From assembly GCA_039586795.1 (NCBI GenBank), contig JBDHJS010000006.1:9408-73407 (forward strand): DNA of 64,000 nt, read 5' to 3'. The first letter of the stretch is position 1, and every line of letters begins with the position of its first letter. The notes below the pieces were generated by a model. That model made no database searches and had not been told where the DNA came from. It worked only from the letters and a program-made list of their open reading frames with translations. Below are positions 6,807 to 62,583 of the stretch, one piece after another. Origin of the DNA: Gemmatimonadota bacterium. Lineage in GTDB: Bacteria > Gemmatimonadota > Gemmatimonadetes > Palauibacterales > KS3-K002. Made by a program: the position numbers and the translations under genes.

Positions 6807-6875
6807 ACAGTAGACGGTAGACGGTAGACGGTACGCCGAACAGCCACCGTCTACCGTCTACCGTCCACTGTCTAC
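6803..6875 (+). terminator. Long near-perfect hairpin built from tandem GTAGACG heptads, overlapping the permease stop codon
   Basis: Arm 1 at 6803-6832 is GTAGACAGTAGACGGTAGACGGTAGACGGT. Arm 2 at 6846-6875 is its reverse complement. The loop is 13 nt. The structure is about 30 bp. Confidence 0.5.
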
Positions 6876-6966
6876 CACCTACCACCCACCCGTGACAATC
6901 CCGCGCGGCCGACTATCTTATCCCATCACCAACACCAACCGGCGCACAATGAGCCGGCAACCACGG

Positions 6967-7056
6967 GGAGAGGTGGCCGAGCGGCTTAAGGCGGCACCCT
7001 GCTAAGGTGTTGGGGGCGTAAGCCCCTCGTGGGTTCGAATCCCACCCTCTCCGCCA
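6967..7056 (+). tRNA. tRNA-Ser (anticodon GCT), class II, CCA encoded
   Basis: Acceptor GGAGAGG/CCTCTCC. Anticodon loop CTGCTAA gives GCT. Long variable arm GGGGGCGTAAGCCCC. T-loop TTCGAAT. Ends GCCA. Confidence 0.8.
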
Positions 7057-9871: not shown

Positions 9872-10819
9872 ATGGCGGCTTCGAAGCACCGGGTCCTGGT
9901 CGCCGAGGAAGTGCGGGCGTTCGTCGATTCCGTAGAGGTGCCATCCGATGTGGAGATCGAGTGGGTCGCTGTGATCGATCCGCTGCCGGATGGCGACTAT
10001 GTCGGGCTCCTACCTCTGCTATCGCGCAAGATCGATGCGTCGGTCCTTGATGGACTCCCTGATCTGAAGGTCGTCGCCAACTATGCCGTCGGCTACGACA
10101 ACATCGACGTGCCGTCGTTGCGCGCTCGAGGAGTAGAGGTCTCCAACACTCCCGATGTGCTGACCGAGGCCACGGCGGATCTCACCTGGGCGCTCATCCT
10201 GGCCGCGAGTCGCCGGCTGATCGAAGCGGAGGCCGTCGCGCGCCACGGCGGGTGGGAATGGGGGCCGACGCTTCTGCTCGGCATGCAGCTGACCGGGAAG
10301 ACGCTTGGCCTTCTCGGCGCGGGTCGCATCGGTCAGGCGGTCGGTCGACGCGCCGTGCCGTTCGGGATGCAGGTGGTCTACTGGGACATGCGGGCGCGAT
10401 CGGAGTTCGAAGCCGAAACCGGGGCACAGCGGATCTCATCGCTGGACCAACTGCTCGGAGCCGCGGACATCGTATCGGTTCACGTGAAGCTCAGCGAAGA
10501 GACGGCGGGGCTGCTCAACAGCGAGCGGATCGCGCGGATGAAGCGGGGCGCGATTCTCATCAATACGGCTCGGGGCGGTATCGTCGACGAGGACGCGCTG
10601 TGCAAGGCGCTGGAGACGCGGGCGCTGCGGGGAGCCGGGCTCGATGTTTACGAGTGGGAGCCGGAGATCCGGGAGTGTTTGAAGCGGCTGCCGAACGTTG
10701 TTCTCTTGCCGCATATCGGAAGTGCCACGGAGGAAACGCGGACCCGGATGTTCCAGCTTGCCTGGAAGAATCTCATGTTTGGGATTCGGGGGGAGCCGCT
10801 GGTCACGCCTGTGGGTTAG
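9872..10819 (+). CDS. D-isomer-specific 2-hydroxyacid dehydrogenase (glyoxylate/hydroxypyruvate reductase-like)
   Basis: NAD-binding GKTLGLLGAGRIGQAV. The RGGIVDEDAL and HIGSAT catalytic regions are present. Start set at the ATG at 9872, 2 nt after the tadA stop. The ORF-track start at 9638 overlaps tadA in another frame. Confidence 0.8.
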   Translation: MAASKHRVLVAEEVRAFVDSVEVPSDVEIEWVAVIDPLPDGDYVGLLPLLSRKIDASVLDGLPDLKVVANYAVGYDNIDVPSLRARGVEVSNTPDVLTEATADLTWALILAASRRLIEAEAVARHGGWEWGPTLLLGMQLTGKTLGLLGAGRIGQAVGRRAVPFGMQVVYWDMRARSEFEAETGAQRISSLDQLLGAADIVSVHVKLSEETAGLLNSERIARMKRGAILINTARGGIVDEDALCKALETRALRGAGLDVYEWEPEIRECLKRLPNVVLLPHIGSATEETRTRMFQLAWKNLMFGIRGEPLVTPVG

Positions 10820-11106
10820 TTCGGCGGTCGACGTTCATCGTTCGACGGAACGCCGGGCTGCGGCCGGACTATTTCAACAGCGGACAGCCGACAGCCGGCG
10901 CTCGACGGCCGAGTCCTGTTGGGCGATCGACGCCCGACGTCCGATGTCCGATGTTCGTCGTCCGACTCGCCGAATGATCTGAGTCGGGATTCCCTCATGC
11001 ATCCATTCTAGCGCTCCTTCCGTCTAAGAAACGAAACCCAAGTGCCCTGACCGGCCGTACTGATTCCTGAGCAGGGGGATCTCTGAAAGGCTATGGAGGA
11101 TCTTAT

Positions 11107-20377: not shown

Positions 20378-20425
20378 TGGGGGGAATCGGGAGTCGGAGT
20401 TCTGATTCCCCAGAATATCGAACGC

Positions 20426-20476
20426 AATTGTCGAAGCTGATTCGACGATTCCCTCATTGCGGATTCCACGAACCGG
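20426..20476 (-). repeat. Family A dispersed repeat, reverse-orientation copy (left half of a head-to-head pair)
   Basis: The reverse complement reads GGTTCGTGGAATCCGCAATGAGGGAATCGTCGAATCAGCTTCGACAATTG. This matches the family consensus TTCCGCGAmTCCAGAATGAGGGAyTCGTTGAATCmrCTTCGAyAATT. Confidence 0.6.
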
Positions 20477-20499
20477 AACATTAGCCGCCGTCCCTTCAG

Positions 20500-20548
20500 C
20501 TTCCGCGACTCCAGAATGAGGGATTCGTTGAATCCGCTTCGATGATTC
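20500..20548 (+). repeat. Family A dispersed repeat, forward copy (right half of a head-to-head pair)
   Basis: CTTCCGCGACTCCAGAATGAGGGATTCGTTGAATCCGCTTCGATGATT. It lies 23 nt from the reverse copy. Confidence 0.6.
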
Positions 20549-20552
20549 CCAC

Positions 20553-26017: not shown

Positions 26018-26158
26018 AGCGCTACCGACAATCGTCGTTCGACGCCCGGCGAACGACGCAACGAACGTCGACCCCGAACCTCGTGCGTCGAACGTCGATC
26101 GCCGAATTGTCCTCGACCGCCGAGCGACCGCTGTCGGCTGTCGAAATAGTCCAATCCG

Positions 26159-30899: not shown

Positions 30900-33325
30900 T
30901 CAAGAACCTCCTTCTGGTGCTTCTAGTGCCGACCCTGGGGCAGCAGGGCGAGGTGGAGGTGAGCGCCAGCCTCAACCGGCCCACAGCCAGCGTCGGCGAG
31001 ACCGTAGCGATGACCGTCACGCTGCGGGCGCCCGGTCTGCGCAGTTGGGAGATCGAGGATCCGACGTTCGAGTCACTGGAGCTGGTCTCATCGAACGACC
31101 GCAACACGTTCCGCTTCTCCGCCTCGCTGGGCGCGGTTCGCGAGTTGTCTCGCGAGTACACGCTCCGCGTTCTGCAGCCGGGTGAGATCACGATCCCGCC
31201 GGTACGCATCACCGTCGAAGGCGTGATCTACGAGACCGAGGCCTTGAGGCTGACGGCCGAGGCAGCCGGCACTTCGGCGGCGATCCCTAGGGGTGTTCGC
31301 CCGCGACCGGAAGAAGAGGTGGCGGTCCGGCTGTGGGCCGAGCCGGACACCGCCTTCGTTGGCCAGCAGGTCACCCTCACCGTGGGTGCGTTCTTCGATC
31401 CTCTGGTACGTAGTCGCTTGCAGCGTCAGCCCGAGTACCGGCCGCCGGACGTGCAGGGATTCTGGACGGCTGATTTGCCGGGCACTCCCCGGCCTGAACG
31501 GCGGGTGGTGAGTGGACGCGAGTACTTCATCCAGATCTACAGACGTGCGCTGTTTGCCCTCAGCCCGGGAACGATACGGATCCCGCCGGCCGCCGTGATC
31601 TACGAAGTGCGCCGCGGACTGATCTACGCGCCCGAGACGTTCCAGGTCGAGAGCGCCCCGGCATCGGTGGTCGTGTTGCCGCTTCCCGCGGAAGGTGCGC
31701 CCCCTGAATTCGCCGGCGCCGTCGGCCGCTACGAGACGGAGATCTGGTTCGACCGATCCGACCTGCGGGCCGGTGAAGCGGTGCACCTGTGGCTCGATGT
31801 TCAGGGCTCCGGCAACCTCAGCTCCCTCGCCCGGCCGACGATGCCCGAGGTGCCCGGGATGCGCGTTTACGACGGCGGTGAGGAAGCCGAGGTCCAGCTG
31901 CGGGGAACCGAGTTTGCTGGGCACAAGCGCTTCTCCTGGGTGCTGGTTCCCGAGCGACCCGGTCAATTCGTGCTGCCTGAATTGCGCTTGCCCTACTTCG
32001 ATCCCTGGGAGAGAAACTACGTTGTCGCCAGCACGGAGCCCGTGACGCTGAACGTCGAGCCGGCGCTCTCCGCCGGCGTCGCGCCGGCCACCGGAGGAAC
32101 CGCGGTTCGCTTCGTGAGGGCGGAGCCGGGAAGGCAGCCCGCCAACCTGCCGGACCGGCGTGGCTTCTGGATCGTCCAGATCGTTCCGCTCGCGATCCTC
32201 CTCGGTTCGCTGGCGTTCGGCCGCTACCGTGGCCGGATTCCGGCAGCGCGGCGCTCCCGGCCCCAGCGTCGTCAGCACGTGCTCCGCGAGCTGCGTCCGA
32301 TAGCCGAATCGGGCGACGCCGCCTTCTTCGGACAGCTGCGTGTGTCGATACTCGAGTGGTTGGCCACGCGGCTCCATCACCCTGGTTTGACCACGCAGGG
32401 GGCGGTGCAGGTTCAGCACGCGCTGGAGGACGCCGGCGTACCCACCGCACTGGCGCTCCAGGTCAATGACCTGCTCGAACGATGCGGCCGCCTGCGCTAC
32501 GCTCCGGATCCGCCCGGCGCCGAAATCGCTCTATCGACGCTGGCCGAGGCGGACAAGCTGATGTCGGCCATCGACCGCGAAGCGGTCTCGGAAAGACGTT
32601 TGCGAACGGCGCGTCCCGGAGGCTCGTCGGCGGCCGTAGGTCTGGCTCTGTTGTTGCTGCTGCCAGCACAATCGGCGGGGCAGAGATCGGACGAGCGACT
32701 GTTCCGCGATGGGGTGAGCGCCTATTCCCGGGCGTCGTACAGAGAGGCGGCGGAACTCTTCGAGCTCTACCTGGCTCGCCATCCTCAGGACCCGAACGCC
32801 CTCTTCAATTTGGGCGACGCCTACTACGAGTTGGGCGAGCGCGGTAAAGCGGTGGCCTATTGGGTGCGAACGCTACGCTTGCGTCCGCGCGACGAAGACG
32901 CTCGCTACAACCTCCGGATGATCGTCGGCGAAGACCCGGTCGTCGGAAGCACGCTCAACCCGTTGCCGCTGTCGCGCGACGAGATGGCGCTGCTCTTCTC
33001 GCTGTTCTGGATTGGCGGCTGCGTCGCGTTCATCCTCCGACGGCGCCGCCGAAAGGGGTTTCTCGCCTTCGCCGGCGGCACATCGATGCTGATCGCATTG
33101 CTCTGCGCCGCACTACTCTTCTATCCGCGCTCCGACTACGCGATCATCGCCAGCCACGAAGCCGTGCTGCGCGCCGGCCCCGTCCGCCAGAGCGAGATCC
33201 TCGGCTCGCCCACCCAGGGCACCGCCTATCGCGTGACCGAGCGCCGGGAGGAATGGCTGCGGGTTTCGAGGGGAGGGGACAGTGAGGGGTGGATTGAGGA
33301 GGGGCAGATTGAGTTGATTGACTAG
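30896..33325 (+). CDS. batD: BatD-like protein fused to a BatE-like TPR region, a TM segment and a C-terminal SH3b-like domain
   Basis: The N-terminal 560 aa are BatD-like. Then come TPR repeats (LFNLGDAYYELGERGKAVAYW), a TM segment (LFWIGGCVAFIL), and finally TQGTAYRVTERREEWLRVS...GWIEEGQIELID, which is SH3b-like. Confidence 0.65.
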   Translation: MIKNLLLVLLVPTLGQQGEVEVSASLNRPTASVGETVAMTVTLRAPGLRSWEIEDPTFESLELVSSNDRNTFRFSASLGAVRELSREYTLRVLQPGEITIPPVRITVEGVIYETEALRLTAEAAGTSAAIPRGVRPRPEEEVAVRLWAEPDTAFVGQQVTLTVGAFFDPLVRSRLQRQPEYRPPDVQGFWTADLPGTPRPERRVVSGREYFIQIYRRALFALSPGTIRIPPAAVIYEVRRGLIYAPETFQVESAPASVVVLPLPAEGAPPEFAGAVGRYETEIWFDRSDLRAGEAVHLWLDVQGSGNLSSLARPTMPEVPGMRVYDGGEEAEVQLRGTEFAGHKRFSWVLVPERPGQFVLPELRLPYFDPWERNYVVASTEPVTLNVEPALSAGVAPATGGTAVRFVRAEPGRQPANLPDRRGFWIVQIVPLAILLGSLAFGRYRGRIPAARRSRPQRRQHVLRELRPIAESGDAAFFGQLRVSILEWLATRLHHPGLTTQGAVQVQHALEDAGVPTALALQVNDLLERCGRLRYAPDPPGAEIALSTLAEADKLMSAIDREAVSERRLRTARPGGSSAAVGLALLLLLPAQSAGQRSDERLFRDGVSAYSRASYREAAELFELYLARHPQDPNALFNLGDAYYELGERGKAVAYWVRTLRLRPRDEDARYNLRMIVGEDPVVGSTLNPLPLSRDEMALLFSLFWIGGCVAFILRRRRRKGFLAFAGGTSMLIALLCAALLFYPRSDYAIIASHEAVLRAGPVRQSEILGSPTQGTAYRVTERREEWLRVSRGGDSEGWIEEGQIELID

Positions 33326-33357
33326 CTGTTGATGAGTGTGATTATGCCTTGGACATC
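33308..33357. repeat. Partial copy of family B repeat
   Basis: GATTGAGTTGATTGACTAGCTGTTGATGAGTGTGATTATGCCTTGGACATC aligns to the 52776-52816 core. Confidence 0.45.
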
Positions 33358-33385
33358 AAAAGTCAGGGATTAGAAGTCACTACCC

Positions 33386-34128: not shown

Positions 34129-35184
34129 ATGAACACACCGAGCTCGAAACGAGTACGCCTCACTCAGTACAGTCACGGCGCCGGTTGAGCTTGTAAGCTA
34201 GGTCCGGCGGACCTGGCCAAAGCGCTCGAAGCTCTCGGTGGCACCAGCCCGACTTCAGAGGTGCTGATCGGCCTCGATGCCCCCGACGACGCCGCCGTAT
34301 ATGCTTGGGACGATGAGCGGGCGATCGTTTCGACCGTCGATTTCTTCACGCCGATCGTCGACGACCCGTACACTTTCGGGGCGATCACCGCCGCCAACGC
34401 GATGAGCGACATCTACGCCATGGGCGGCGTTCCCCTCTTCGCCCTCAACATCGTCGCCTTCCCCAGCGGCGAGCTCGATTCGGGTATCCTGACCGAGATC
34501 CTGCGGGGCGGCCGCGACAAGGCGGCGGAAGCGGGCGTCGCGATCATCGGCGGTCACTCCATCGACGACAAGGAGCCGAAGTACGGTCTGGCCGTCGTCG
34601 GCTCAGCGCCACCCGGCTCTCTGCTCCTTAAGAGCGACGGCCGGCCCGGCGACCGTCTCGTGCTGAGCAAGGCCATCGGGATCGGTATCATCGCCACGGC
34701 CATCAAAAGCGAAGCGGCGCCCAAGGAAACCGAGGATGCGGCCGTCGCGTCGATGCTCAAGCTGAACGATCGCGCCCTCGCGGCGGCGCGCCGTTACGAC
34801 GTCGGCGCCGTCACCGATGTGACCGGGTTCGGACTGCTCGGCCACCTCCACGAGCTGGCGCGTATGAGCGGGCTCGCCGCCCGTGTCGAGTCGAGTGCCG
34901 TCCCCGTTCTCCCCGGCGCCCGCGATCTCCTCGCCGCCGGCCACGTTCCGGGCGGCACGCGCCGCAACCTCGAGTTCGTGAATGGGCTGACTGACTGGGG
35001 GACCGATCTCGACGAGAGCGAGCGCACGCTGCTCTGCGATGCCCAGACCTCGGGCGGCCTGCTCATATCCGTATCCGCGTCGGACGCGCCGGCGCTCGTT
35101 CAGGCGCTGGTCGACGAGGGACACGCCGCCGCCGAGATCGGCGAGCTGTTCGACGGCGACGTCGGATCGATCGAAGTGCGATGA
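34129..35184 (+). CDS. selD: Selenide, water dikinase (selenophosphate synthetase) containing selenocysteine, encoded by an in-frame TGA at 34186-34188
   Basis: ATG at 34129 gives MNTPSSKRVRLTQYSHGAG-[TGA]-ACKLGPADLAKALEAL..., co-linear with the E. coli SelD N-terminus RLTQYSHGAGCGCKISP. The TGA is at the Cys17 position. The ORF track splits this gene into 33829..34188 plus 34261..35184. Confidence 0.8.
34197..34217 (+). promoter_or_regulatory. SECIS-like hairpin 8 nt downstream of the selD UGA
   Basis: GCTAGGTCC-GGC-GGACCTGGC has a 9-bp stem with one G-U pair. Confidence 0.4.
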
Positions 35185-35843
35185 ACGGGCCGCTCAGCAT
35201 CCGGGAGATTGCACGTCGAACCGGGGTGCCCGAATCAACGCTTCGTTATTATCGCAGCATCTTCGCCGAGCACATCCCCACCGACGGTGCCGGACGTAGT
35301 CGCCGACACCCGGACGATGCCGTCCAGGTCTTCAAGCTCATCTCCAGCATGTTCGCCAGGGGCGCCTCCCGGGCATCCGTTCGCGACGAGCTCGAGAGCC
35401 TCCGCCTCAACGGCGAGCCGCTGGTAACCCGCGGATCACCCGACGCGAACCCCCACGATGAGACCGCAACGCGCTACGAGATCACGCGGGCGGAAACCCA
35501 GCTGCCGAGACAGGATCTGGAAAGCCTCATCACCGCCATGCTGATTCGTGATCGCGAGCTCGTCACCATGCACCGCGAGCTCCTCGAGATGGCCGGCCAA
35601 CTGCTCCACGCCGTCGGCCGCCTCGCCGGCGCGCGCCCCGCCGCCCCGTTCGCCCCCGAAGCCGCCATCCCGCCACCACGAGAGGAAGAAACCGCCGCCT
35701 CACCCGACGACGACCCCCTCGAGCTAGAGAAACTCCGCCAAAGCCTGGCTAAAGAAAGGGATATGGTCGAGCGCCTACGACACGCCCGCCTGGAACTAGA
35801 ACAAAGACTGGCAAAACTGGAGAGAGAAAAACGAAAAGGCTAG
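35181..35843 (+). CDS. MerR-family HTH transcriptional regulator with a coiled-coil C-terminus
   Basis: LSIREIARRTGVPESTLRYYRSIF is a MerR-type HTH. It overlaps the selD stop by 4 nt. Confidence 0.6.
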   Translation: MNGPLSIREIARRTGVPESTLRYYRSIFAEHIPTDGAGRSRRHPDDAVQVFKLISSMFARGASRASVRDELESLRLNGEPLVTRGSPDANPHDETATRYEITRAETQLPRQDLESLITAMLIRDRELVTMHRELLEMAGQLLHAVGRLAGARPAAPFAPEAAIPPPREEETAASPDDDPLELEKLRQSLAKERDMVERLRHARLELEQRLAKLEREKRKG

Positions 35844-35844
35844 T

Positions 35845-35897
35845 TCCGGTTCCGCGAATCCAGAATGAGGGATTCGTTGAATCCACTTCGACAATTC
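35845..35897 (+). repeat. Family A dispersed repeat, solo forward copy
   Basis: TTCCGGTTCCGCGAATCCAGAATGAGGGATTCGTTGAATCCACTTCGACAATTC. It sits between the convergent MerR-like gene and trkH. Confidence 0.6.
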
Positions 35898-41195: not shown

Positions 41196-43391
41196 ATGCG
41201 CATCAAGAGCTTCACAGACGAACGCGGCCTGGCGCTGATCGCCACGTTGCTGCTTCTGGCCCTGGTCGCCGTGCTGACGACGACGGCGCTCACCGGCGCC
41301 ATGAACGCGCTCCGTACGTCGGGCAGCGACTACCAGGACACGCGGGTCTTCTACGCCGCGGAAGCGGGCGCCGAGGCCACACTGGCCCAGCTGAAGGTCG
41401 CGCTGCTCGATGGGTACCTGTCGCCCGACGAGCTGACGAACATGAAGCCGCCAGATCTGAACGCCGTCGACTTCGACAGCTTCGCGGTGAACAAGGTTGG
41501 CGATGAGATCGTCGAGACGATCACCGACGGACCGTTCGCCGGGCTCTACGCGCTGACGCAGAACGTCGACATCTATTCCCGGGCCGCGAACGCGGCGGGC
41601 GATGTCTCAGCGGTCATTCTGCGCGCCAAGGCGCAGGCGATCCCCATCTTCCAGTTCGGCGTCTTCTTCGAGCAGGACCTCGAGGCTACCAACGGGCCGC
41701 CCATGGAGTTCGTGGGGCGCGTCCATTCGAACGGCAACATCTACCTGAGCTCGGACAACGCCTGGTACCGCGACCTGGTCACCACGCCCAACAAGATCAT
41801 CCACGACCGCAAGGACTTCCACAGCGTGAAGAACGGGGTGTACGTTAACGACTCCGGCGGCACCGAGGTCCCGTTGGACTTTGACAGCCGGACGCACGCG
41901 GACCCCGAAGCGTTCAAGGCGAAGAGCTGCGACAGGTTCGACTGCCGGGTGCAGACCGACGCCTTCGGGGTCGACTCGCTCTCTCTGCCGCTGCCCGATG
42001 GCGTGCCGCCCTACGAGTTGCTCATGCCACGCGAGAACAGCGATGTGGACGCGGAGCGCCAGGTGAAGTTCGCCTGGAACGCCGACATGTACATCGAGGT
42101 CGACCTGGGCAACATCAGCACCAAGGAGGACGTTTGCATGGGTGGCGGCCCCAAAAAGGACCCGGACGAGGTCGGCGGCGACCTGCAGGTCACCGCTCTG
42201 CAGAAGGTGGAACCGGGGGCGACCGTCCAGTTCAAGATCCTCAACGTGCCCTGCGGGGAGATCGATGACGTCGATGTCCAAATTACGGCCGACGGCGTCA
42301 CATTCTTTTCGGTCATTGACCTTCAGAACTGTATCTTCCAGGCCACCATCCCCATCGACGCCAACGACGTCGTCTTGACCGCCATTGGCGACGATGACGG
42401 TATCGGGACGGTGATGAACGGGAGCGCCTTCTGGTACGGGCTTCAGTACGTCAACGATCTCGCGCCCTGGCCGGCGACGACGATCACCCGCAGTTCGGGT
42501 GGTGACGTTCCGGCTGCTAAAGACATGTGCAACATGTTCTGGTGGGATTGGGCGAGCTTCTACGACGGGCGCGAAAAGGAGCTCAAAGATGTGCTCAACA
42601 TCGACATCGCCCAGATAGTCGCCTGGGCCGGCGGCTCGTCCTCCCGGAGCAGTGAGGTCATTTACGTCGAGATCAAGGTTCCCAATACGATCAATGGGTA
42701 CTCGCAAGAGACGCTGGACCTGATATTGGACGGGACACTCGATCCGGCGGTGCGCGTGCTCAACGGCCAGACGCTGCCGAATCCGATGTCGCTGGCCAGC
42801 GAATGGCCGCTCTACGTGAAGGGCGACTATAACCGCTTCGCGAAGAAGCCCGCCGCCCTGGCCGGCGACGGCATCACTATCCTGTCTAATGCTTGGGACG
42901 ATGCGAACAACAAGCCGCCCGGCGGTACCTACACCTCCTGTACGAACCAGACCGCTCCAAACTCTCCGTGTGCACACTACTTGACCTGGCAAGCCACCTG
43001 GACGAAGGGGCCGAGCCTCGAGACCTGGGTCAACGCGGCGATCCTCGCCGGGCACACGGCGACGCCGTGTGACCATGAAGATTCTTCCTGCATCGCCGAC
43101 GGCTCGAGCGCCTACTATACGGACTGGTACGGCGGCGGACTGGAGAACTTCCCACGCTTCCTCGAGCGCTGGTACAACACTAGCGGAGTTCGCCAGACGC
43201 TCCATTTCGTGGGCGCTCTGATCAGCCCGTTCACCAGCCAGAAGACGACCGGCACTTGGAACGGCAGCTACTACTCGCCGCCCCAGCGTGACTGGCAATT
43301 CGATACAGATTTCCAAGACCCGAGGCTCTTGCCGCCGGGCACGCCCAACGTGGGGTACGTCCTGCGAACCGCCATGAGAGAGGCATACTGA
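41196..43391 (+). CDS. Large PilX-N-terminal-domain protein (731 aa), candidate pilus tip/adhesin component
   Basis: RGLALIATLLLLALVAVLTTTALTGAMNALRTSGSDYQDTRVFYAAEAGAE is a PilX_N-type N-terminus. The N-terminal 300 aa and C-terminal 60 aa are near-identical to the downstream paralog. Confidence 0.6.
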   Translation: MRIKSFTDERGLALIATLLLLALVAVLTTTALTGAMNALRTSGSDYQDTRVFYAAEAGAEATLAQLKVALLDGYLSPDELTNMKPPDLNAVDFDSFAVNKVGDEIVETITDGPFAGLYALTQNVDIYSRAANAAGDVSAVILRAKAQAIPIFQFGVFFEQDLEATNGPPMEFVGRVHSNGNIYLSSDNAWYRDLVTTPNKIIHDRKDFHSVKNGVYVNDSGGTEVPLDFDSRTHADPEAFKAKSCDRFDCRVQTDAFGVDSLSLPLPDGVPPYELLMPRENSDVDAERQVKFAWNADMYIEVDLGNISTKEDVCMGGGPKKDPDEVGGDLQVTALQKVEPGATVQFKILNVPCGEIDDVDVQITADGVTFFSVIDLQNCIFQATIPIDANDVVLTAIGDDDGIGTVMNGSAFWYGLQYVNDLAPWPATTITRSSGGDVPAAKDMCNMFWWDWASFYDGREKELKDVLNIDIAQIVAWAGGSSSRSSEVIYVEIKVPNTINGYSQETLDLILDGTLDPAVRVLNGQTLPNPMSLASEWPLYVKGDYNRFAKKPAALAGDGITILSNAWDDANNKPPGGTYTSCTNQTAPNSPCAHYLTWQATWTKGPSLETWVNAAILAGHTATPCDHEDSSCIADGSSAYYTDWYGGGLENFPRFLERWYNTSGVRQTLHFVGALISPFTSQKTTGTWNGSYYSPPQRDWQFDTDFQDPRLLPPGTPNVGYVLRTAMREAY

Positions 43392-43424
43392 GCTCGTCAT
43401 AGACCTTAGAACGACATTCAACCC

Positions 43425-43465
43425 GCCCTTGGATCGCCAACCCGGCGATCCAAGGGCCTTTTTTT
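43425..43465 (+). terminator. Rho-independent terminator between the two large pilin-like paralogs
   Basis: GCCCTTGGATCGCC-AACCCG-GCGATCCAAGGGC followed by TTTTTTT. Confidence 0.7.
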
Positions 43466-43526
43466 CGGGGGCATCCAGGCTTCCCAGGGACCAGCAACAG
43501 TCCCGTCCGACAACCCGGAGATTTGT

Positions 43527-45782
43527 GTGATGGATTTATTGCCCAGTGTCACAGGGCTAAGGCTTTCGGCCAGGAAGCTCTGCCAGCGAACGGACGATCG
43601 CAGCGGACTGGCCCTTATTGCCACTTTGCTGCTGCTTGCGATGGTCGCAGTGCTCACGACCACGGCGCTCACCGGCGCGATGAACGCGCTGCGCACGGCC
43701 GGCAGCGACTATCAGGACACTCGGATCTTCTACGCGGCGGAAGCCGGCGCCGAGGGTACCTTGGCCCAGCTGAAGATCGCACTCGCCGACGGCTACCTGT
43801 CGCCCGACGAGCTGACGAACATGAAGCCGCCTCAATTCGACGGCATTGACTTCGACAGCTTTACGGTGAACAAGATCGGCGATGAGACGGTAGAGACGAT
43901 CACCGACGGTCCCTACGCGGGGCTGTTCGCCCTCACGCAGAACGTCGACATCTACTCTCATGCGTCAAACGCCGCCGGCGATATCTCGGCGGTCATCCTG
44001 CGGGCCAAGGCGCAGGCGATCCCGATCTTTCAGTTCGGCGTCTTCTTCGAGGGCGATTTGGAAGGCACGAACGGCCCACCGCTCCATATGGCGGGCCGTG
44101 TCCATTCGAATGGCAACATCTATCTCAGCTCCAGCAACGCGTGGTACCACGAGATGGTCACCACCCCCAACAAGGTGTTTCACGACCGAAAGGACCAGCA
44201 CTACGTGCGCAACGGCGTCTACATCGACGACTCCGGCGGCAACGCGGTACGACTCAACTTCGACAGCCGTTCGCATCCCGATCCCGAGGCCTTCAAGTCG
44301 GAAAGCTGTTCGAGATTCGACTGTCGCCTGCAAACCGATGCGTTCGACGTCGATTCTCTGAGCTTGCCCCTGCCGGACGGCGTCTTGCCCTACGAGCTGG
44401 TGCGGCCGCGTGAGGATAGTGACACCGACGCGGAACGCAACGTGAAGTTCGCCTGGAACGCCGACTTCTACCTCACCATAGACCTGGTGAACCTATCGAC
44501 GGAGGACGTCGAGTGTGGCAACGTGTCAGTGGTGCCGGATCCGGATGTCATCAACTCGGGCAACATAACGCTGACCGGCTCCGGGGCGCTTTGCCCGGGC
44601 GAACTCGTCACGTTCGTGGCCAGCCATCCCGACCTCGTCTGCGCGGATTTCGACTTTCGGGCGCTGCGCACTGTCGAGGCCGGCGGGAAGATAAATTCCG
44701 AGCCCATGGACGGCTGTCAATTCAAAGTGAATCTTCCGGACGGGGCGCCGACAGACATCAGGATCACGATCGAACTCAAGATGGCTGATTATCCGCAACT
44801 GAGTCAGGACGAACTGGCCGATGTCTTGTGGTTGCAGGACACGATCGACGCCAACTGCACGGGTGGCGCCACCCTGAGCAACGACCCGTGGCCGAACATG
44901 GTCGTTACGCGGGCGGGCGGGGAGTCGCCCGACAAGGCTGATCTGTGCTCGATCTTCCAGTGGGAGTGGTCGGACTTTTTCGATGGCCGCGAGAACGAGC
45001 TAAAGGACGTCCTGAACGTCGATCTCGCCGCGCTGAACGCATGGGTCACTGGCAACGCGCAACGTACGATCGAGATCCTCTACGTCGATTTCGTCGTGCC
45101 CGGCGATATCAAAAACTACAAACCGCTGACCAAGGACCTGTTGCCGGACGCGACGGTCGATCCGGCGCTGCGGCTCATCAACGGAAGCTCGCTCCCGAAC
45201 CGCATGACGATCGCCAACGAATGGCCGCTCTACATCCGGGGCAACCTGAACAGCGTCAACAAACAGCCGGCGGCCGTAACGGGGGATGGCATCACGATCC
45301 AGTCGAATGCTTGGCTAGATGCGAATAACCGTCCGCCCGAAAGCGTATTCACCGCCTGTAAAGGCATCGTTAGCGCCGGCAACGCTTGCCCCAAATACAC
45401 GGATTGGATGCCAACCTGGGCCATGCGAACCGCTTCGGAGACGACTGTGAACGCGGCCTTCCTCGGCGGTCACTGGGCGACGCCATGCGATCACGAGGAC
45501 GCGGGATGCGGCGGCGGCTACTACGACTTCTACGGCGGCGGCTTTCACAACTTCCCGCGCTTTGTCGAAGACTGGCTGCGTACAGTCAAGTTCCACTACA
45601 CAGGCGCCTTGATCAGTCCGTTCACTAGTCAGAAGACGACGGGCACCTGGAACCTGACCTACTACGAGCCGCCGGATCGCAACTGGGCGTTCGATACCGA
45701 CTTCCGCGACCCGAGGCTCCTGCCGCCCGGTACACCGAACGTCGGTTACGTGCTCCGTACCGCAATGCGCGAGGCCTATTAG
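43527..45782 (+). CDS. Large PilX-N-terminal-domain protein, tandem paralog (751 aa; start uncertain)
   Basis: SGLALIATLLLLAMVAVLTTTALTGAMNALRTAGSDYQD... and the identical C-terminal ...GTPNVGYVLRTAMREAY. The central region (about residues 320-520) is diverged from the upstream paralog. Confidence 0.6.
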   Translation: MMDLLPSVTGLRLSARKLCQRTDDRSGLALIATLLLLAMVAVLTTTALTGAMNALRTAGSDYQDTRIFYAAEAGAEGTLAQLKIALADGYLSPDELTNMKPPQFDGIDFDSFTVNKIGDETVETITDGPYAGLFALTQNVDIYSHASNAAGDISAVILRAKAQAIPIFQFGVFFEGDLEGTNGPPLHMAGRVHSNGNIYLSSSNAWYHEMVTTPNKVFHDRKDQHYVRNGVYIDDSGGNAVRLNFDSRSHPDPEAFKSESCSRFDCRLQTDAFDVDSLSLPLPDGVLPYELVRPREDSDTDAERNVKFAWNADFYLTIDLVNLSTEDVECGNVSVVPDPDVINSGNITLTGSGALCPGELVTFVASHPDLVCADFDFRALRTVEAGGKINSEPMDGCQFKVNLPDGAPTDIRITIELKMADYPQLSQDELADVLWLQDTIDANCTGGATLSNDPWPNMVVTRAGGESPDKADLCSIFQWEWSDFFDGRENELKDVLNVDLAALNAWVTGNAQRTIEILYVDFVVPGDIKNYKPLTKDLLPDATVDPALRLINGSSLPNRMTIANEWPLYIRGNLNSVNKQPAAVTGDGITIQSNAWLDANNRPPESVFTACKGIVSAGNACPKYTDWMPTWAMRTASETTVNAAFLGGHWATPCDHEDAGCGGGYYDFYGGGFHNFPRFVEDWLRTVKFHYTGALISPFTSQKTTGTWNLTYYEPPDRNWAFDTDFRDPRLLPPGTPNVGYVLRTAMREAY

Positions 45783-49860: not shown

Positions 49861-49863
49861 CGG

Positions 49864-49939
49864 CAATCATCAATCCTCAACACCTAATCCTCAATCATCC
49901 ACAAATCTGGGAATTGAGGACTAGGTGTTAATGATTGAG
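49864..49939. repeat. Inverted-repeat hairpin element between tatD and mutL (family C, related to family B by ATCCTCAACACC)
   Basis: Left arm CCTCAACACCTAATCCTCAAT. Right arm ATTGAGGACTAGGTGTTAATGATTGAG. The loop is about 14 nt. Confidence 0.55.
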
Positions 49940-49991
49940 CATTGCGAAGCATCCGCTTGATGAGCCCGCGCCCTTCAAATAGCTTCGCTCC

Positions 49992-52711: not shown

Positions 52712-52816
52712 AATCACACTCATCAATCGCTCAATCGATCAGCTCTCAATCATAGACCGTTTTCCCCTGATAAATGAGGGCTGAGTTGTTGATGAGTGTG
52801 ATTGAACCTTGGACAC
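52712..52816. repeat. Palindromic intergenic repeat, family B, full copy
   Basis: AATCACACTCATCAA (52712-52726) and TTGATGAGTGTGATT (52787-52801) are inverted. The 52773-52816 core equals 1087-1128 apart from 3 mismatches. Confidence 0.6.
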
Positions 52817-52895
52817 TAGATCTTAGACGTCGACAGCCCGTTGACAGTAAGGCGGACCTAGCAAACCAACCCAACCCCAGCTAGCTTCCGCGCAA

Positions 52896-57472: not shown

Positions 57473-59185
<1,713 letters not shown>

Positions 59186-59214
59186 CCCGTTTGCTGGGTG
59201 GTTGGTGTTTTGGC

Positions 59215-59247
59215 GGGGCCCGACGAGAGTCGGGCCCCGTTGCTTTT
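59215..59247 (+). terminator. Rho-independent terminator of groEL
   Basis: GGGGCCCGAC-GAGA-GTCGGGCCCC followed by GTTGCTTTTG. Confidence 0.7.
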
Positions 59248-59304
59248 GAGGGTTGGATGATGGGAATCGACAATTTGGATGCCGGGATTTCCAGAACCGG
59301 GGAT

Positions 59305-59355
59305 CCAATTATCGAATCGGATTCAACGATTCCCTCATTCAACGATTCGCGGAAG
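59305..59355 (-). repeat. Family A repeat, reverse copy (left inverted repeat flanking the four-helix-bundle gene)
   Basis: The reverse complement reads CTTCCGCGAATCGTTGAATGAGGGAATCGTTGAATCCGATTCGATAATTGG. Confidence 0.6.
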
Positions 59356-59363
59356 TGGAGGCG

Positions 59364-59738
59364 ATGGTGGGCAAGGCGTTCGATTTGGAGGATCGGTTGG
59401 TCGCGCTGGGCACGGAGGTTTCTAGGATTGCGTTGAGGCTGCCATCTGATCGGTTGGGGAAGCACGTTTCCGACCAGCTCATCAGGTGCGGGACGGCGCC
59501 CGCCGCCAACTGCGCCGAGGCACGCTCGTGCGAGTCGCGGCGCGACTTCATCCACAAGATGAAGGTCGGCCTCAAGGAACTCAGAGAAACGTTCGTGTGG
59601 CTGAAATACCTGCGGAACCTCGGTATGGGGCCTCGCGAGTCCATTGACGAAGCTCTCGGCGAAACCGACCAACTCATCGCCATCTTCGTCGCCAGCATCG
59701 GCACCGCCCGCCGCAACTCAAAACGGAACGATACCTGA
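59364..59738 (+). CDS. Four-helix-bundle protein (23S rRNA intervening-sequence protein family)
   Basis: MVGKAFDLEDRLVALGTEVSRIALRLP ... FIHKMKVGLKELRETFVWLKYL ... IAIFVASIGTARRN matches the family signatures. Length 124 aa. GGAGG is 3 nt upstream. Confidence 0.7.
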   Translation: MVGKAFDLEDRLVALGTEVSRIALRLPSDRLGKHVSDQLIRCGTAPAANCAEARSCESRRDFIHKMKVGLKELRETFVWLKYLRNLGMGPRESIDEALGETDQLIAIFVASIGTARRNSKRNDT

Positions 59739-59750
59739 CAAGTACGTTCA

Positions 59751-59802
59751 GGTTCCGCGACTCCAGAATGAGGGACTCGTTGAATCAGCTTCGATAATTG
59801 GG
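59751..59802 (+). repeat. Family A repeat, forward copy (right inverted repeat flanking the four-helix-bundle gene)
   Basis: GTTCCGCGACTCCAGAATGAGGGACTCGTTGAATCAGCTTCGATAATTGGG. Confidence 0.6.
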
Positions 59803-59934
59803 TTCGCCAATTCGAAATTCCCGATTTCCACAATCTCGATTCCCCCCAAGATTTGCCATGCGCCCAGCTAGCTGACTACATTTGATCCCACGACCGTGCG
59901 TTTTCGCAGCCTCAGACCTCGGACTGTGGTGTAA

Positions 59935-62583
59935 ATGCCCTCGGAAACCTGTATCCACTGTTCCACCCCGCTTCCCGACGGCAGCCAGCTGTGCGCCCAG
60001 TGCGGCACGCCGGTGCCGGGCAGCAGCTACTCGGATATGCCGACCCTCACCCCGCAGGGTCGGGAGATCTTCGAGCGGCTGCAGGAGGCGACCGAGGGGA
60101 AGTACGAGATCTTCCGCGAACTGGGCCGGGGCGGCATGGCCTTCGTTTTCCTTGGCCGTCAGAAGTCTCTCGATCGTCTGGTCGCCATCAAGGTCTTGCT
60201 TCCGATGCTTGCCTACGATCCCGAGCTCGTCGAGCGCTTCATGCGGGAGGCCAAGACCCAGGGCAAGCTCGACCATCCGAACATCATCAACGTGTTCGAA
60301 GTCTATAACGAGAGCGGACTCAGTTTCTTCACCGTGCCCTTCATTCAGGGACAGAGTCTGCGGGGTTACCTGAAGGACAATCTCCAGCCGCCGATCCCCA
60401 AGATCCGACGCTACATCGCCCAGGCCGCCGATGCCCTCGCCTACGCGCACAGGCGCGGCGTGGTCCACCGGGACATCAAGCCGGACAACATGCTCATCGA
60501 CGGCGAGCGGGACCGCATCGTCATCACCGACTTCGGGATCGCCAAGGCGCTGCAGGCGGAGACGACGCTGACCACGCCGGGCGATCTGTTGGGTACGCCG
60601 CAGTACATGTCGCCGGAGCAGGGAGAGGGGCGGCAGGATCTCGATGGACGCGCCGACCAGTATTCCCTCGCCCTGATCGCGTGGGAGATGCTCGCTGGAC
60701 GACGGCCCTTCCAGGCCGACAATCTGGCCGAGCTCATGTACCTGCACCGCTTCGAGGAGCCCGACGACATCGACGAGATCCGGCCGGATGCGCCTCGCAA
60801 CATGCGAGCCGCGATCAAGCGCTCGATCTCGAAGGATCGGGAAGAGCGGTTCGCCTCGATGATCGAGTTCCAGGAGGCGTTCGAGGCGCCCGATGATGTC
60901 GTTGTCGAAGCTCCGGCGGCGAAGCAAGAGCCACCGACGGGACTGGACGAAGAGACCATCCGCATCCCCACACCCACCAGTCTGAGGGAAAAGGTCGCAC
61001 CTCCCGAGGATGCGGAGGCCACCGAGGCGTGGACGCCGTCCGATGAGAAGATGCCATGGGACCAGACGGCCACTCCGGCGACGCCGGCAGCCGCAGCGCC
61101 CGCAACGGTCGATGAGTCCGACACCGTACTCCTCCAGACGGGCGAGCCCCGCAAGAGATCGCGTATTGGACTGCTCGTCGGCGGGAGCATGGTTGTCGTC
61201 GTTGCCGCTGCCCTCGTGTTCGTCTTCGACCCGTTCCAGATCGGCCAGGAGGCGTTCCGTGGTCCCGTCACGGCGCAGCCCGGGACGGAAACGCCCCAGG
61301 GCACGCAAGACGACAGGGAAGGCGGCGCTGAGGGCGGCGGTCAGGACGATGCCGCGCTGGCCACGGTCGACCCAGCCGGCGGCGGTACGCCCGAGGGTGG
61401 CGAGACGCCGGGCGGGACCGGTGAAGGCGGCGGCGCTCAGACCGGCGGCGCCCAGGTGGGCGATACCCCGACCGACGATACCCCGGTGGATGCTGGGCAG
61501 GGCGAGGTCGAACCGCCGGACGATTCCCGGACGCAGTACGAGGCTGAGCAGGCGCGTAATGCGCGCCGTAGTGCTTCAGACTGGCGGGACGCGGCGATCA
61601 CCGCCGGCGCGGCGACGCTTCTGCAGCCGCGGCTCGATTCCCTCGATAGCGTTCTTGCGGAGGCCGATCGGCAGATCGCCGACGGCAACTACGCGGCGGC
61701 GCGCGCCAGCCTGTCCGAGCTGATCCGAGGCTACACCGCGCTAAGAAACGACGCATCCAGCGCATCGGATGCGGCGGACGCGGTGCGCACGGCCGCCACC
61801 CAGGCGCGTCGGTCGGCGCTCGCGCAGCAGTCGAACGTCGTCCAGGCCGGCGGCGAGGTGTTTCTGGCCAGCGAGCTTCAGGCGTTGAACGGTCGAATGC
61901 AGCAAGCGCAAACCGCCCTCGACGATGAGCGTTTCGAGGACGCTAGCGATATGTACACGCAGTTGGCCACCGAACTGGAGGCGCTCGCCTCTCGGGTGCT
62001 CACTGAAGGCGCGGCCTCGGCGCGAGCGGCGCAGCAGGAGATGGAAGGCCAACGCACGGCGGCGAACGACGCGGGCGCCAACGAGTATGTGCCGGAGGAC
62101 TTGGCGAACGCCGACGCGATTCGCATCAGCGCGATGACCGCGCAAGGAGAGGAGCGCTACGCCGATGCCGTCACGCTCTTCGCACAGGCGCGGGACGCCT
62201 ACACTCAGGTCGCGATCGATGCCGCTGCCGCGGTTCCGGTGCTCAGTGCGGAAGATCAGGTGTCGGCTCTGATCGAGCAGTTCCGTGTTCTGTTCGAGCA
62301 GGAAGAGATCGGTCGCATGGGGTCCGAGCTGTACGGTGGTGAGGTGCCCGAGTCGGATGCCGACCTGATGAACTACATCTTCGGCCTCGCCGAAGGCATC
62401 AGCGCGACATCGACGGTGGAAAGGCTCGAGGTCGAAGGGAACACGGCCACAGCCGATATCCGCCTCGACCTCGATTTTCGCAACCAGCGGACCGGAAGCA
62501 ACCAGGACATGGACATGAGGCTACGCCTCGACTTCCAGTCCGCTTCCGACGGTTGGCGCCTGCGAAGCCTTCGCCGGCGCTAG
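59935..62583 (+). CDS. Ser/Thr protein kinase with an N-terminal zinc ribbon, a single TM segment and a long C-terminal extracytoplasmic Ala/Gly-rich domain
   Basis: CIHCSTPLPDGSQLCAQCG is the zinc ribbon. Kinase motifs LGRGGMAFVFLG ... VAIK ... HRDIKPDNML ... DFGIAK ... GTPQYMSPE. TM at LLVGGSMVVVVAAALVFVF. Confidence 0.8.
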   Translation: MPSETCIHCSTPLPDGSQLCAQCGTPVPGSSYSDMPTLTPQGREIFERLQEATEGKYEIFRELGRGGMAFVFLGRQKSLDRLVAIKVLLPMLAYDPELVERFMREAKTQGKLDHPNIINVFEVYNESGLSFFTVPFIQGQSLRGYLKDNLQPPIPKIRRYIAQAADALAYAHRRGVVHRDIKPDNMLIDGERDRIVITDFGIAKALQAETTLTTPGDLLGTPQYMSPEQGEGRQDLDGRADQYSLALIAWEMLAGRRPFQADNLAELMYLHRFEEPDDIDEIRPDAPRNMRAAIKRSISKDREERFASMIEFQEAFEAPDDVVVEAPAAKQEPPTGLDEETIRIPTPTSLREKVAPPEDAEATEAWTPSDEKMPWDQTATPATPAAAAPATVDESDTVLLQTGEPRKRSRIGLLVGGSMVVVVAAALVFVFDPFQIGQEAFRGPVTAQPGTETPQGTQDDREGGAEGGGQDDAALATVDPAGGGTPEGGETPGGTGEGGGAQTGGAQVGDTPTDDTPVDAGQGEVEPPDDSRTQYEAEQARNARRSASDWRDAAITAGAATLLQPRLDSLDSVLAEADRQIADGNYAAARASLSELIRGYTALRNDASSASDAADAVRTAATQARRSALAQQSNVVQAGGEVFLASELQALNGRMQQAQTALDDERFEDASDMYTQLATELEALASRVLTEGAASARAAQQEMEGQRTAANDAGANEYVPEDLANADAIRISAMTAQGEERYADAVTLFAQARDAYTQVAIDAAAAVPVLSAEDQVSALIEQFRVLFEQEEIGRMGSELYGGEVPESDADLMNYIFGLAEGISATSTVERLEVEGNTATADIRLDLDFRNQRTGSNQDMDMRLRLDFQSASDGWRLRSLRRR

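Follow-up and report, generated by a model that had tools for sequence, protein, structure and literature searches.

How does a gene of a protein family known from ribosomal RNA come to lie, within an inverted repeat, between two protein-coding genes? Intervening sequences (IVSs) that bear an open reading frame (ORF) occur in the 23S rRNA of Leptospira, Coxiella burnetii, Xanthomonas and Brucella; their origin and mobility have been open questions since about 1990, and the family to which their ORFs belong, PF05635, is still listed as uncharacterised. Here we analyse a member of this family located between groEL and a Ser/Thr kinase gene in a 64,000-nt stretch of the Gemmatimonadota bacterium contig JBDHJS010000006.1 (hereafter the 64-kb window, to which all window coordinates refer). 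We show that positions 59262-59844 form one unit, in which a PF05635 ORF is enclosed by two inverted arms of ~93 nt, and we conclude that this unit is probably an IVS-type selfish cassette residing outside rRNA, with arms that would form a stem in the transcript.

The ORF of the cassette, for which an initial annotation made from the sequence had proposed a 124-aa four-helix-bundle protein of IVS type at 59364-59738 (+), exceeds the cutoffs of both relevant profiles, PF05635 "23S rRNA-intervening sequence protein" (E 2.2e-11; 44.3 bits vs a cutoff of 33.8) and TIGR02436 "four helix bundle protein" (E 1.3e-17; 63.9 bits vs a cutoff of 24). The bracketing inverted repeats described in the same annotation are real, but they are considerably longer than the ~50 nt first assigned to them: a repeat finder delimits arms of 79 nt (59262-59340 / 59766-59844, 76%), and a gapped alignment extends these to ~93 nt each (59262-59354 / 59753-59844). 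Between the two repeat units the cargo is an almost bare ORF, and the only direct repeats found in 59200-59900 besides the arms are two 14-nt two-copy pairs, of the short kind often due to chance. The long stem anticipated for the transcript is recovered by RNA folding of 59250-59856, where the outer arms are paired in the minimum-free-energy structure (-278.9 kcal/mol, z = -8.1). Rfam identifies no rRNA in the window, only three tRNAs, so that the cassette does not lie inside a 23S or 16S rRNA gene, and it detects no known RNA family either at the cassette or at an ORF-less hairpin at 20.4 kb that is discussed below. Contigs of the JGI metagenomes 3300041075 and 3300041087 encode the exact protein, their DNA being identical to the window from 59100 to 60000, and the closest homologues of the protein come from Gemmatimonadota metagenome-assembled genomes.

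The inverted-repeat frame is a property of the PF05635 gene family, found across phyla with arms whose sequence is specific to each locus. In a survey of 16 loci, we scored this frame as the local alignment between the 200 nt upstream of the gene and the reverse complement of the 200 nt downstream, and used 112 other genes on the same contigs as controls (mean 8.3, sd 1.2, max 12). The window cassette scores 37, and all eight independent chromosomal or metagenomic loci, comprising the window, five other Gemmatimonadota-type contigs, one Desulfobacterales genome and one Planctomycetes contig (four phyla, going by record names), score between 20.5 and 80. Such repeats thus do accompany four-helix-bundle genes in other genomes and, judged by the control genes, do so preferentially instead of as a generic element of the repetitive extragenic palindrome (REP) kind. 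The arms begin within ~40 nt of the ORF ends in most of these eight loci, and they consist mostly of short tandem units of 7-8 nt, such as GATTCGGG, GGAATTCGGGA, GAACATT and GAATATCGA.

Eight further loci with 30-43% identity, seven from plasmids (Nostoc, Planktothrix, Gloeocapsa, Pseudanabaena and Candidatus Chlorohelix) and one from a viral contig, were scanned with arms allowed to overlap the ORF by 30 nt, the control maximum of 12 being an approximate yardstick there. Scores of 29-33.5 were obtained at four of them (L046, L047, L050, L051) and of 14.5-18.5 at the other four (L045, L049, L044, L048). At six of the eight (scores 17.5-33.5), inverted arrays of tandem heptamers start no more than ~15 nt from the ORF on at least one side, for example (CAATTCG)x5 on both sides in Nostoc punctiforme pNPUN02 and (AATTCAA)x4 in Nostoc flagelliforme (L051), where the left array is 68 nt upstream of the ORF. 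Of the remaining two, the Pseudanabaena locus gives a weak score (14.5), and the viral contig, which was the one locus that a search of viral contigs with the family alignment retrieved, shows a heptamer-like pair at a distance of 33-123 nt from its tblastn match (18.5).

Two comparisons inform how the arms evolve. The Desulfobacterales locus (L042; 9971-10000 / 10383-10412) and the Planctomycetes locus (L043; 9978-10000 / 10440-10462) have nearly the same arm, GAATATCGAACAnGGAATATyGA, which is 92% identical over 27 nt around ORFs that are ~65-70% identical at the DNA level, and therefore the arms travel with the gene. Additionally, the left array of one cassette has ~4 AGTCGGA/GGTCGGA units in N. 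punctiforme pNPUN01 (L050, 1838-1881) vs ~9 in Nostoc cf. commune pANSO36A (L065, in which the right array and the downstream xisH are truncated), and arrays thus expand and contract. We found no repetition of the arms elsewhere in the 20-kb loci of seven other genomes.

The family also shows a recurrent genomic arrangement. The gene tables show a co-directional upstream gene at nearly all of the loci examined, and in Planktothrix, Ca. Chlorohelix, Pseudanabaena and Gloeocapsa (L046, L045, L048, L049) the plasmid four-helix-bundle genes (4HB in gene orders) lie co-directionally inside defence operons, some of them only 11-34 nt from their neighbours. The operon contexts on plasmids are drmD-4HB-pglX, helicase-4HB-N6-methylase, csx2-4HB-cas1 and DUF1156-4HB-HEPN. 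Such in-operon, co-directional positions fit transcription together with the host unit.

Comparison with related genomes provides evidence that the cassette behaves as a block. The order groES-groEL-4HB-kinase is common to the window and two relatives, L031 (CP070812.1) and L034; the outer arm motif AATTnTCGAAT..GATTC can be aligned among the three, and the inner arm differs. In a third relative, L066 (GCA_011774305.1), whose GroEL is 92% identical to that of the window (88% in L031 and L034), ~110 nt separate the groEL terminator from the kinase gene, with neither ORF nor arms, and homology with the window restarts at 59852, eight bases past the right-arm end. This alignment indicates that gene and arms have been gained or lost together, as one indel. 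The ORF in turn is under purifying selection in this lineage, with ratios of nonsynonymous to synonymous substitution rates against syntenic orthologues of 0.12, 0.28 and 0.06, compared with 0.10-0.13 for GroEL. The groEL terminator-like hairpin is part of the context 5' of the cassette and lies outside the inserted block. No sigma-70-like promoter was detected in or before the cassette, the sole promoter-like site being 3' of it at 59853-59882.

The one clean insertion junction of the whole survey comes from plasmids of Nostoc. Three Nostoc strains (L052-L054) have an intact 399-nt gene and thus represent empty alleles; in N. flagelliforme, a block of ~524 nt lies inside that gene, ordered as a 14-nt end, (AATTCAA)x4, a leader, the ORF, (TTTTGAA)x4 and a 7-nt end. 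The 11-nt sequence TGGAGTTGGGT occurs at either end of the block but in a single copy in the empty alleles, a duplication greater than that in all 200 shuffles. Allele by allele, the Nostoc cassette is a discrete DNA insertion that brought its own arms. Moreover, four N. flagelliforme copies occupy the same site of paralogous plasmid regions, with 0 variable columns across the cassette vs 2-16 per 50 columns in the nearer flanks. Identical cassettes in diverged flanks indicate that a discrete element carrying its arms has spread recently, through homing or gene conversion. The initial suggestion of a small mobile or excisable unit is therefore sustained by L066, which lacks both gene and arms, and by the Nostoc insertion with its 11-nt duplication, but does not extend to recent movement of the window copy, which looks old and vertically inherited. 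As a separate observation, in the RNA fold of L051 1785-2325 base pairs form between the 14-nt left end (CAACCCCTTCGGGT) and the right-hand one of the two target copies, and the L051 stem therefore runs on into flanking host sequence.

The window also contains copies of the arm family without an ORF. A 21-nt arm core, GATTCAACGAnTCCCTCATTC, is present five times with at most 3 mismatches, vs 0 expected. Two of these copies belong to the cassette arms and two to the arms of the 20.4-kb hairpin, and the fifth, a solo copy, is at 35863-35883; arm identity between window copies is 83-95%. The 20.4-kb hairpin had been reported in the initial annotation as a head-to-head pair at 20426-20548; the pair is present as reported, its arms (20426-20478 / 20495-20547) being 16 nt apart, and the solo copy had gone unlisted. 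The hairpin, whose two repeat units nearly abut, has a predicted RNA fold of -79.5 kcal/mol (z = -6.3). Its left arm over ~100 nt, its inner right unit and its termini GGGAATC...GATTCCC are shared with the loaded cassette (59262/59844 and 20382/20550). That it lacks the ORF and keeps the same arms and termini agrees with its earlier description as the empty form of the element; it is not, however, an unoccupied target, because true empty sites, in L066 and in Nostoc, have no arms. We therefore consider 20382-20550 an ORF-less element of the cassette arm family. Its descent from a loaded cassette is plausible but unproven, and the hairpin may alternatively have been converted to cassette-arm sequence. 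At the orthologous site, between a Zn-ribbon protein gene and rpsT, three relatives have shorter, different inverted repeats of GGGAAT/ATTCCC type, which points to a long-standing hairpin whose sequence is turning over. Searches with the repeat core gave nothing beyond chance in GTDB representative genomes (at least 7 single matches in unrelated taxa) or in JGI metagenome contigs (at least 20 single matches).

The parallel with rRNA IVSs, already drawn in the initial annotation, gains support from Coxiella. The Coxiella 23S rRNA IVS is an RNase III-excised stem with an S23p ORF inside, and three tandem GACAGAT heptamers lie just upstream of its start codon (Warrier et al. 2016, PMC4990558). 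The window cassette likewise has a PF05635 ("S23p") ORF of ~120 aa enclosed by inverted repeats that form a long stem, and tandem heptamers adjoin the ORF in its relatives as they do in Coxiella. IVSs are regarded as selfish and have a sporadic distribution. In contrast to IVSs, the window cassette lies between groEL and a kinase gene, and its relatives inside operons or a protein-coding gene; purifying selection acts on its ORF, while that of Coxiella is in decay and probably not translated; and its stem is predicted, whereas RNase III excision has been shown for Coxiella and other IVSs (PMC4990558). DNA-level insertion with a target duplication, as in Nostoc, is not reported for any IVS in the accessible literature.

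These parallels suggest a scenario for the window cassette. The cassette would have entered the groEL-kinase site in an ancestor of these Gemmatimonadota, and would then have been inherited vertically and lost in at least one relative. It would be transcribed with or through the upstream gene, a proposal based on the co-directional upstream gene at nearly all loci and the lack of a detectable sigma-70-like promoter. By analogy with IVSs, the arms would pair into a long stem in the transcript and this stem would be a substrate of RNase III, as demonstrated experimentally for Coxiella. Cleavage would free the cassette RNA and make the insertion tolerable in host transcripts, whether rRNA or operon mRNA. 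The ORF-less hairpin and the solo arm would then be derivatives or relatives of the cassette arm family.

Several observations weigh against this scenario. At the window cassette no target duplication survives at the outer ends, the longest flanking direct repeat (5 nt) being at chance level; a scan for target duplications at other loci was negative at 13 of 14, with Nostoc L051 as the sole clear case, and a second and third comparison of loaded and empty sites, in N. punctiforme (L047, L050), met diverged or replaced junctions and no clean target duplication. Tandem repetition in the window arms is weak, with a period of 8 at 59320-59348 (Tandem Repeats Finder, TRF). Mismatches in the arms comprise 32 G:U vs 21 A:C, numbers compatible alike with a stem at the RNA level and with an inverted repeat at the DNA level. 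In L034 the stem is partly decayed (score 22.5) with the ORF still under selection, so that the stem is not strictly required for the gene.

Known repeat systems resemble the cassette in part. Rehm et al. 2015 (PMC4692102) described inverted pairs of tandem heptamers, GGGAATC in Xanthomonas and GGGGA(T/C)T in Nostoc. The supplementary table of that study lists 186 GGGAATC arrays in the X. campestris genome, 70 of them as inverted pairs, and one array (622956-622983; supplementary file 2, row 15) overlaps the start codon (-17) of XCC0516, a link that its authors did not draw. XCC0516 is a crystallised member of the four-helix-bundle family and a structural homologue of the window protein. Like the family arrays, these pairs and the cyanobacterial short tandemly repeated repetitive (STRR) heptamers are convergent tandem 7-nt units capable of forming hairpins, and GGGAATC also forms the termini of both window elements; they differ in that they were presented as simple repeats forming G-quadruplexes, devoid of gene cargo and of any PF05635 link, and in that the window arms are only weakly periodic. 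Regarding the initial comparison with MITEs (miniature inverted-repeat transposable elements), several features fit: the cassette is small and has terminal inverted repeats, an ORF-less copy in the same genome shares its termini, and the recent Nostoc insertion (L051) has an 11-nt target duplication. The window cassette departs from MITEs, in contrast, in carrying a conserved, selected ORF and in lacking a target duplication, and since its terminal repeats are not conserved across the family, it is no classical MITE with a transposase-specific terminal repeat. Over ~10 kb upstream and 6 kb downstream of the gene, the extent of the gene table for a sister contig (L008), no transposase is listed; this negative result does not extend to the remainder of the window, which was not screened systematically.

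The protein itself offers limited clues. Its predicted monomer is an up-down four-helix bundle that can be superposed on XCC0516 (2gsc) and BT_0352 (2rld), and its nearest structures are uncharacterised proteins and Avd; it has no recognised catalytic fold. Avd is a nucleic-acid- and reverse-transcriptase-binding accessory of diversity-generating retroelements (DGRs); despite this structural homology, the window sequence is closer to the BT_0352 and XCC0516 group, and neither a reverse transcriptase nor a template/variable repeat pair is found beside the gene, whose neighbours are groES, groEL, kinase and outer membrane protein genes. The family motif GxxRxxxSxxxNxxE (Zhang et al. 2013; Lin et al. 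2006) corresponds in the window protein to ...QLIRCGTAPAANCAEA, in which R, N and E are kept and A stands in place of S; the consensus of a 20-sequence alignment keeps RCGTSPAPNYAE, and many charged residues are invariant in the family alignment. PADLOC and PHROGs searches with the window protein gave no match, and the family is called uncharacterised throughout the papers we found. Zhang et al. (PMC3936711) noted 18 PF05635 genes in cas loci. Considering the positions of the plasmid genes within operons, these cas-locus genes may be insertions rather than Cas components.

An account that overlaps with the IVS-type cassette and adds a function for the protein would make the latter a trans-acting factor of the repeat family that spreads or maintains ORF-less hairpins, in the manner of REPtrons. 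REPtrons, which combine a RAYT (REP-associated tyrosine transposase) gene with inverted REPs, resemble the window in that one small gene is bracketed by an inverted repeat also found gene-free elsewhere: within 64 kb, one arm family is represented by a loaded cassette, by a hairpin without an ORF that has the same termini, and by a lone arm, the gene-free copies in these 64 kb thus numbering two. The GGGAAT-type hairpins at the rpsT-proximal site of related genomes resemble the cassette arms of related genomes, the abundant GGGAATC arrays of Xanthomonas include the one at XCC0516, and the protein combines many invariant charged residues with purifying selection. We nevertheless regard this role as rather unlikely, given that the 20-kb loci of the seven other genomes hold no further copies of their arms, that the protein is a PF05635 four-helix bundle rather than an HUH/Y1 transposase and has no recognised catalytic fold, and that the window also contains short-tandem-repeat hairpins made of unrelated units.

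The arms could instead belong to the target, the gene inserting into the loops of pre-existing REP-like hairpins as rRNA IVSs do at helix tips. Locus-specific arm sequences, an almost bare ORF between the units and a hairpin with the same arms but no ORF, at a site where relatives also have hairpins, would all be expected on this account; what makes it highly improbable is that the arrays arrive with the ORF in Nostoc, that L066 has neither arms nor ORF, and that the Desulfobacterales and Planctomycetes arms are more alike than the ORFs they enclose. At the two sites with empty alleles, Nostoc and L066, no hairpin exists at the insertion point, and targeting of a hairpin loop is contradicted there. 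Least probable of all, we believe, is a resident gene without mobility, whose mRNA stem has a regulatory or stabilising role and whose other repeat copies are generic intergenic repeats. Synteny in three lineages together with purifying selection, complementarity that is kept while the sequence changes, the strong predicted stem and the lack of a target duplication in the window are compatible with such a gene. Yet the block is present in some relatives and absent from another at the same site, family members occur in unrelated contexts (defence and cas operons, the inside of a disrupted gene), identical cassettes occupy diverged paralogous flanks, and in L034 the ORF persists beside a decayed stem. 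Taken as a whole, this evidence leads us to prefer an IVS-type cassette that moves with its own arms.

It is tempting to extend the IVS-type interpretation further, in a form that we put forward as speculation and hold to be doubtful. PF05635 proteins might be the signature of an unrecognised, cross-phylum group of very small mobile elements (~0.4-0.6 kb), each consisting of one ORF between inverted short-tandem-repeat arrays, with rRNA IVSs as the members noticed first. The protein would act in trans, possibly with a host reverse transcriptase, as its homologue Avd does, or on hairpin DNA or RNA, copying the cassette and seeding the ORF-less inverted heptamer hairpins of Xanthomonas (GGGAATC pairs), Nostoc (STRR-type) and these Gemmatimonadota.

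The coordinates of the cassette, its immediate context and the related elements are collected in Table 1.

Table 1. Features of the cassette locus and of ORF-less members of its arm family in the 64-kb window.
Feature	Position	Strand	Basis or remark
groEL intrinsic-terminator-like hairpin, GGGGCCCGAC-GAGA-GTCGGGCCCC followed by a T-rich tail	59215..59248	+	sequence; conserved in L031, L034 and L066
Cassette left arm, begins GGGAATC; inner part 59305-59355 is the ~50-nt unit of the initial annotation	59262..59354	+	pairs with 59753-59844
GGAGG Shine-Dalgarno-like motif between left arm and start codon	59357..59361	+	sequence
Four-helix-bundle protein gene, 124 aa, PF05635 / TIGR02436	59364..59738	+	profile matches
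Cassette right arm, reverse complement of left arm, ends GATTCCC	59753..59844	-	homology to cassette-free L066 resumes at 59852
ORF-less hairpin of the same arm family	20382..20550		left arm 20382-20485, loop of a few nt, right arm 20490-20550
Solo arm unit in right-arm orientation, directly 3' of the stop codon of ORF 35181-35843	35839..35896	+	83% identical to 20490-20547

Only 2 nt separate the GGAGG motif from the ATG at 59364, vs 5 nt for a GTG at 59367; in view of the short spacing to the ATG, the GTG may be the true start of the four-helix-bundle ORF.

Other repeats of the window were recorded in passing. A near-perfect hairpin at 6803-6876, with four tandem GTAGACG units and their inverse (30-nt arms, 97% complementary, 13 nt apart), contains no ORF, lies ~90 nt upstream of tRNA-Ser(GCT) at 6967 and is built like the arms around four-helix-bundle genes of other genomes. 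Intergenic hairpins whose arms consist of short, heptamer-like units are also seen at 49863-49945 (AATCATC/AATCCTC...; 33-nt arms, 85% complementary) and at 52712-52803 (AATCACACTCATCAATCGCTCA / TGAGTTGTTGATGAGTGTGATT). A separate dispersed repeat (...ATGAGGGCTGAGTTGTTGATGAGTGTGAT...) has copies at 1074-1147, directly after tRNA-Ser(TGA) at 955-1039, and at 33324-33371 and 52760-52833 (71-77% identical). A 68-nt inverted pair (10883-10950 / 26075-26142; 78% complementary, 15 kb apart) contains CGACGTC tandem heptamers (TRF: 10928-10966, 26062-26106). Additionally, three blocks recur at ~2.4-kb spacing within 41224-45778 (300 nt, 84%; 227 nt, 70%; 187 nt, 76%), suggesting tandem paralogous genes.

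The literature has so far treated these subjects in three separate descriptions: rRNA IVSs that bear an ORF, heptamer pairs as simple repeats, and PF05635 genes as neighbours of cas genes or DGRs. In the searchable literature we found no statement that PF05635 genes outside rRNA are generally framed by inverted short-tandem-repeat arrays, nor that they insert as a unit with these arms. Our findings suggest that members of the family outside rRNA normally have, in several phyla, the architecture of an IVS, namely a four-helix-bundle ORF within a long stem built from short tandem units. They also suggest that the whole block is gained or lost as a unit, and that in one case it was inserted with a target duplication and spread recently between paralogous sites.

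This family-wide view has consequences beyond the Gemmatimonadota. For genome annotation, a cassette of this type marks an insertion inside an operon and should not be taken as a functional partner of its neighbours; in this sense, the "cas-associated" and defence-operon occurrences of the family may be read alternatively as selfish insertions. The inverted heptamer repeats that abound in Xanthomonas and cyanobacteria may also have their origin in such cassettes. While the copy described here appears to be long settled, the N. flagelliforme plasmid copies are concrete, recently active elements, and regarding the family as cassettes may help explain how rRNA IVSs move.

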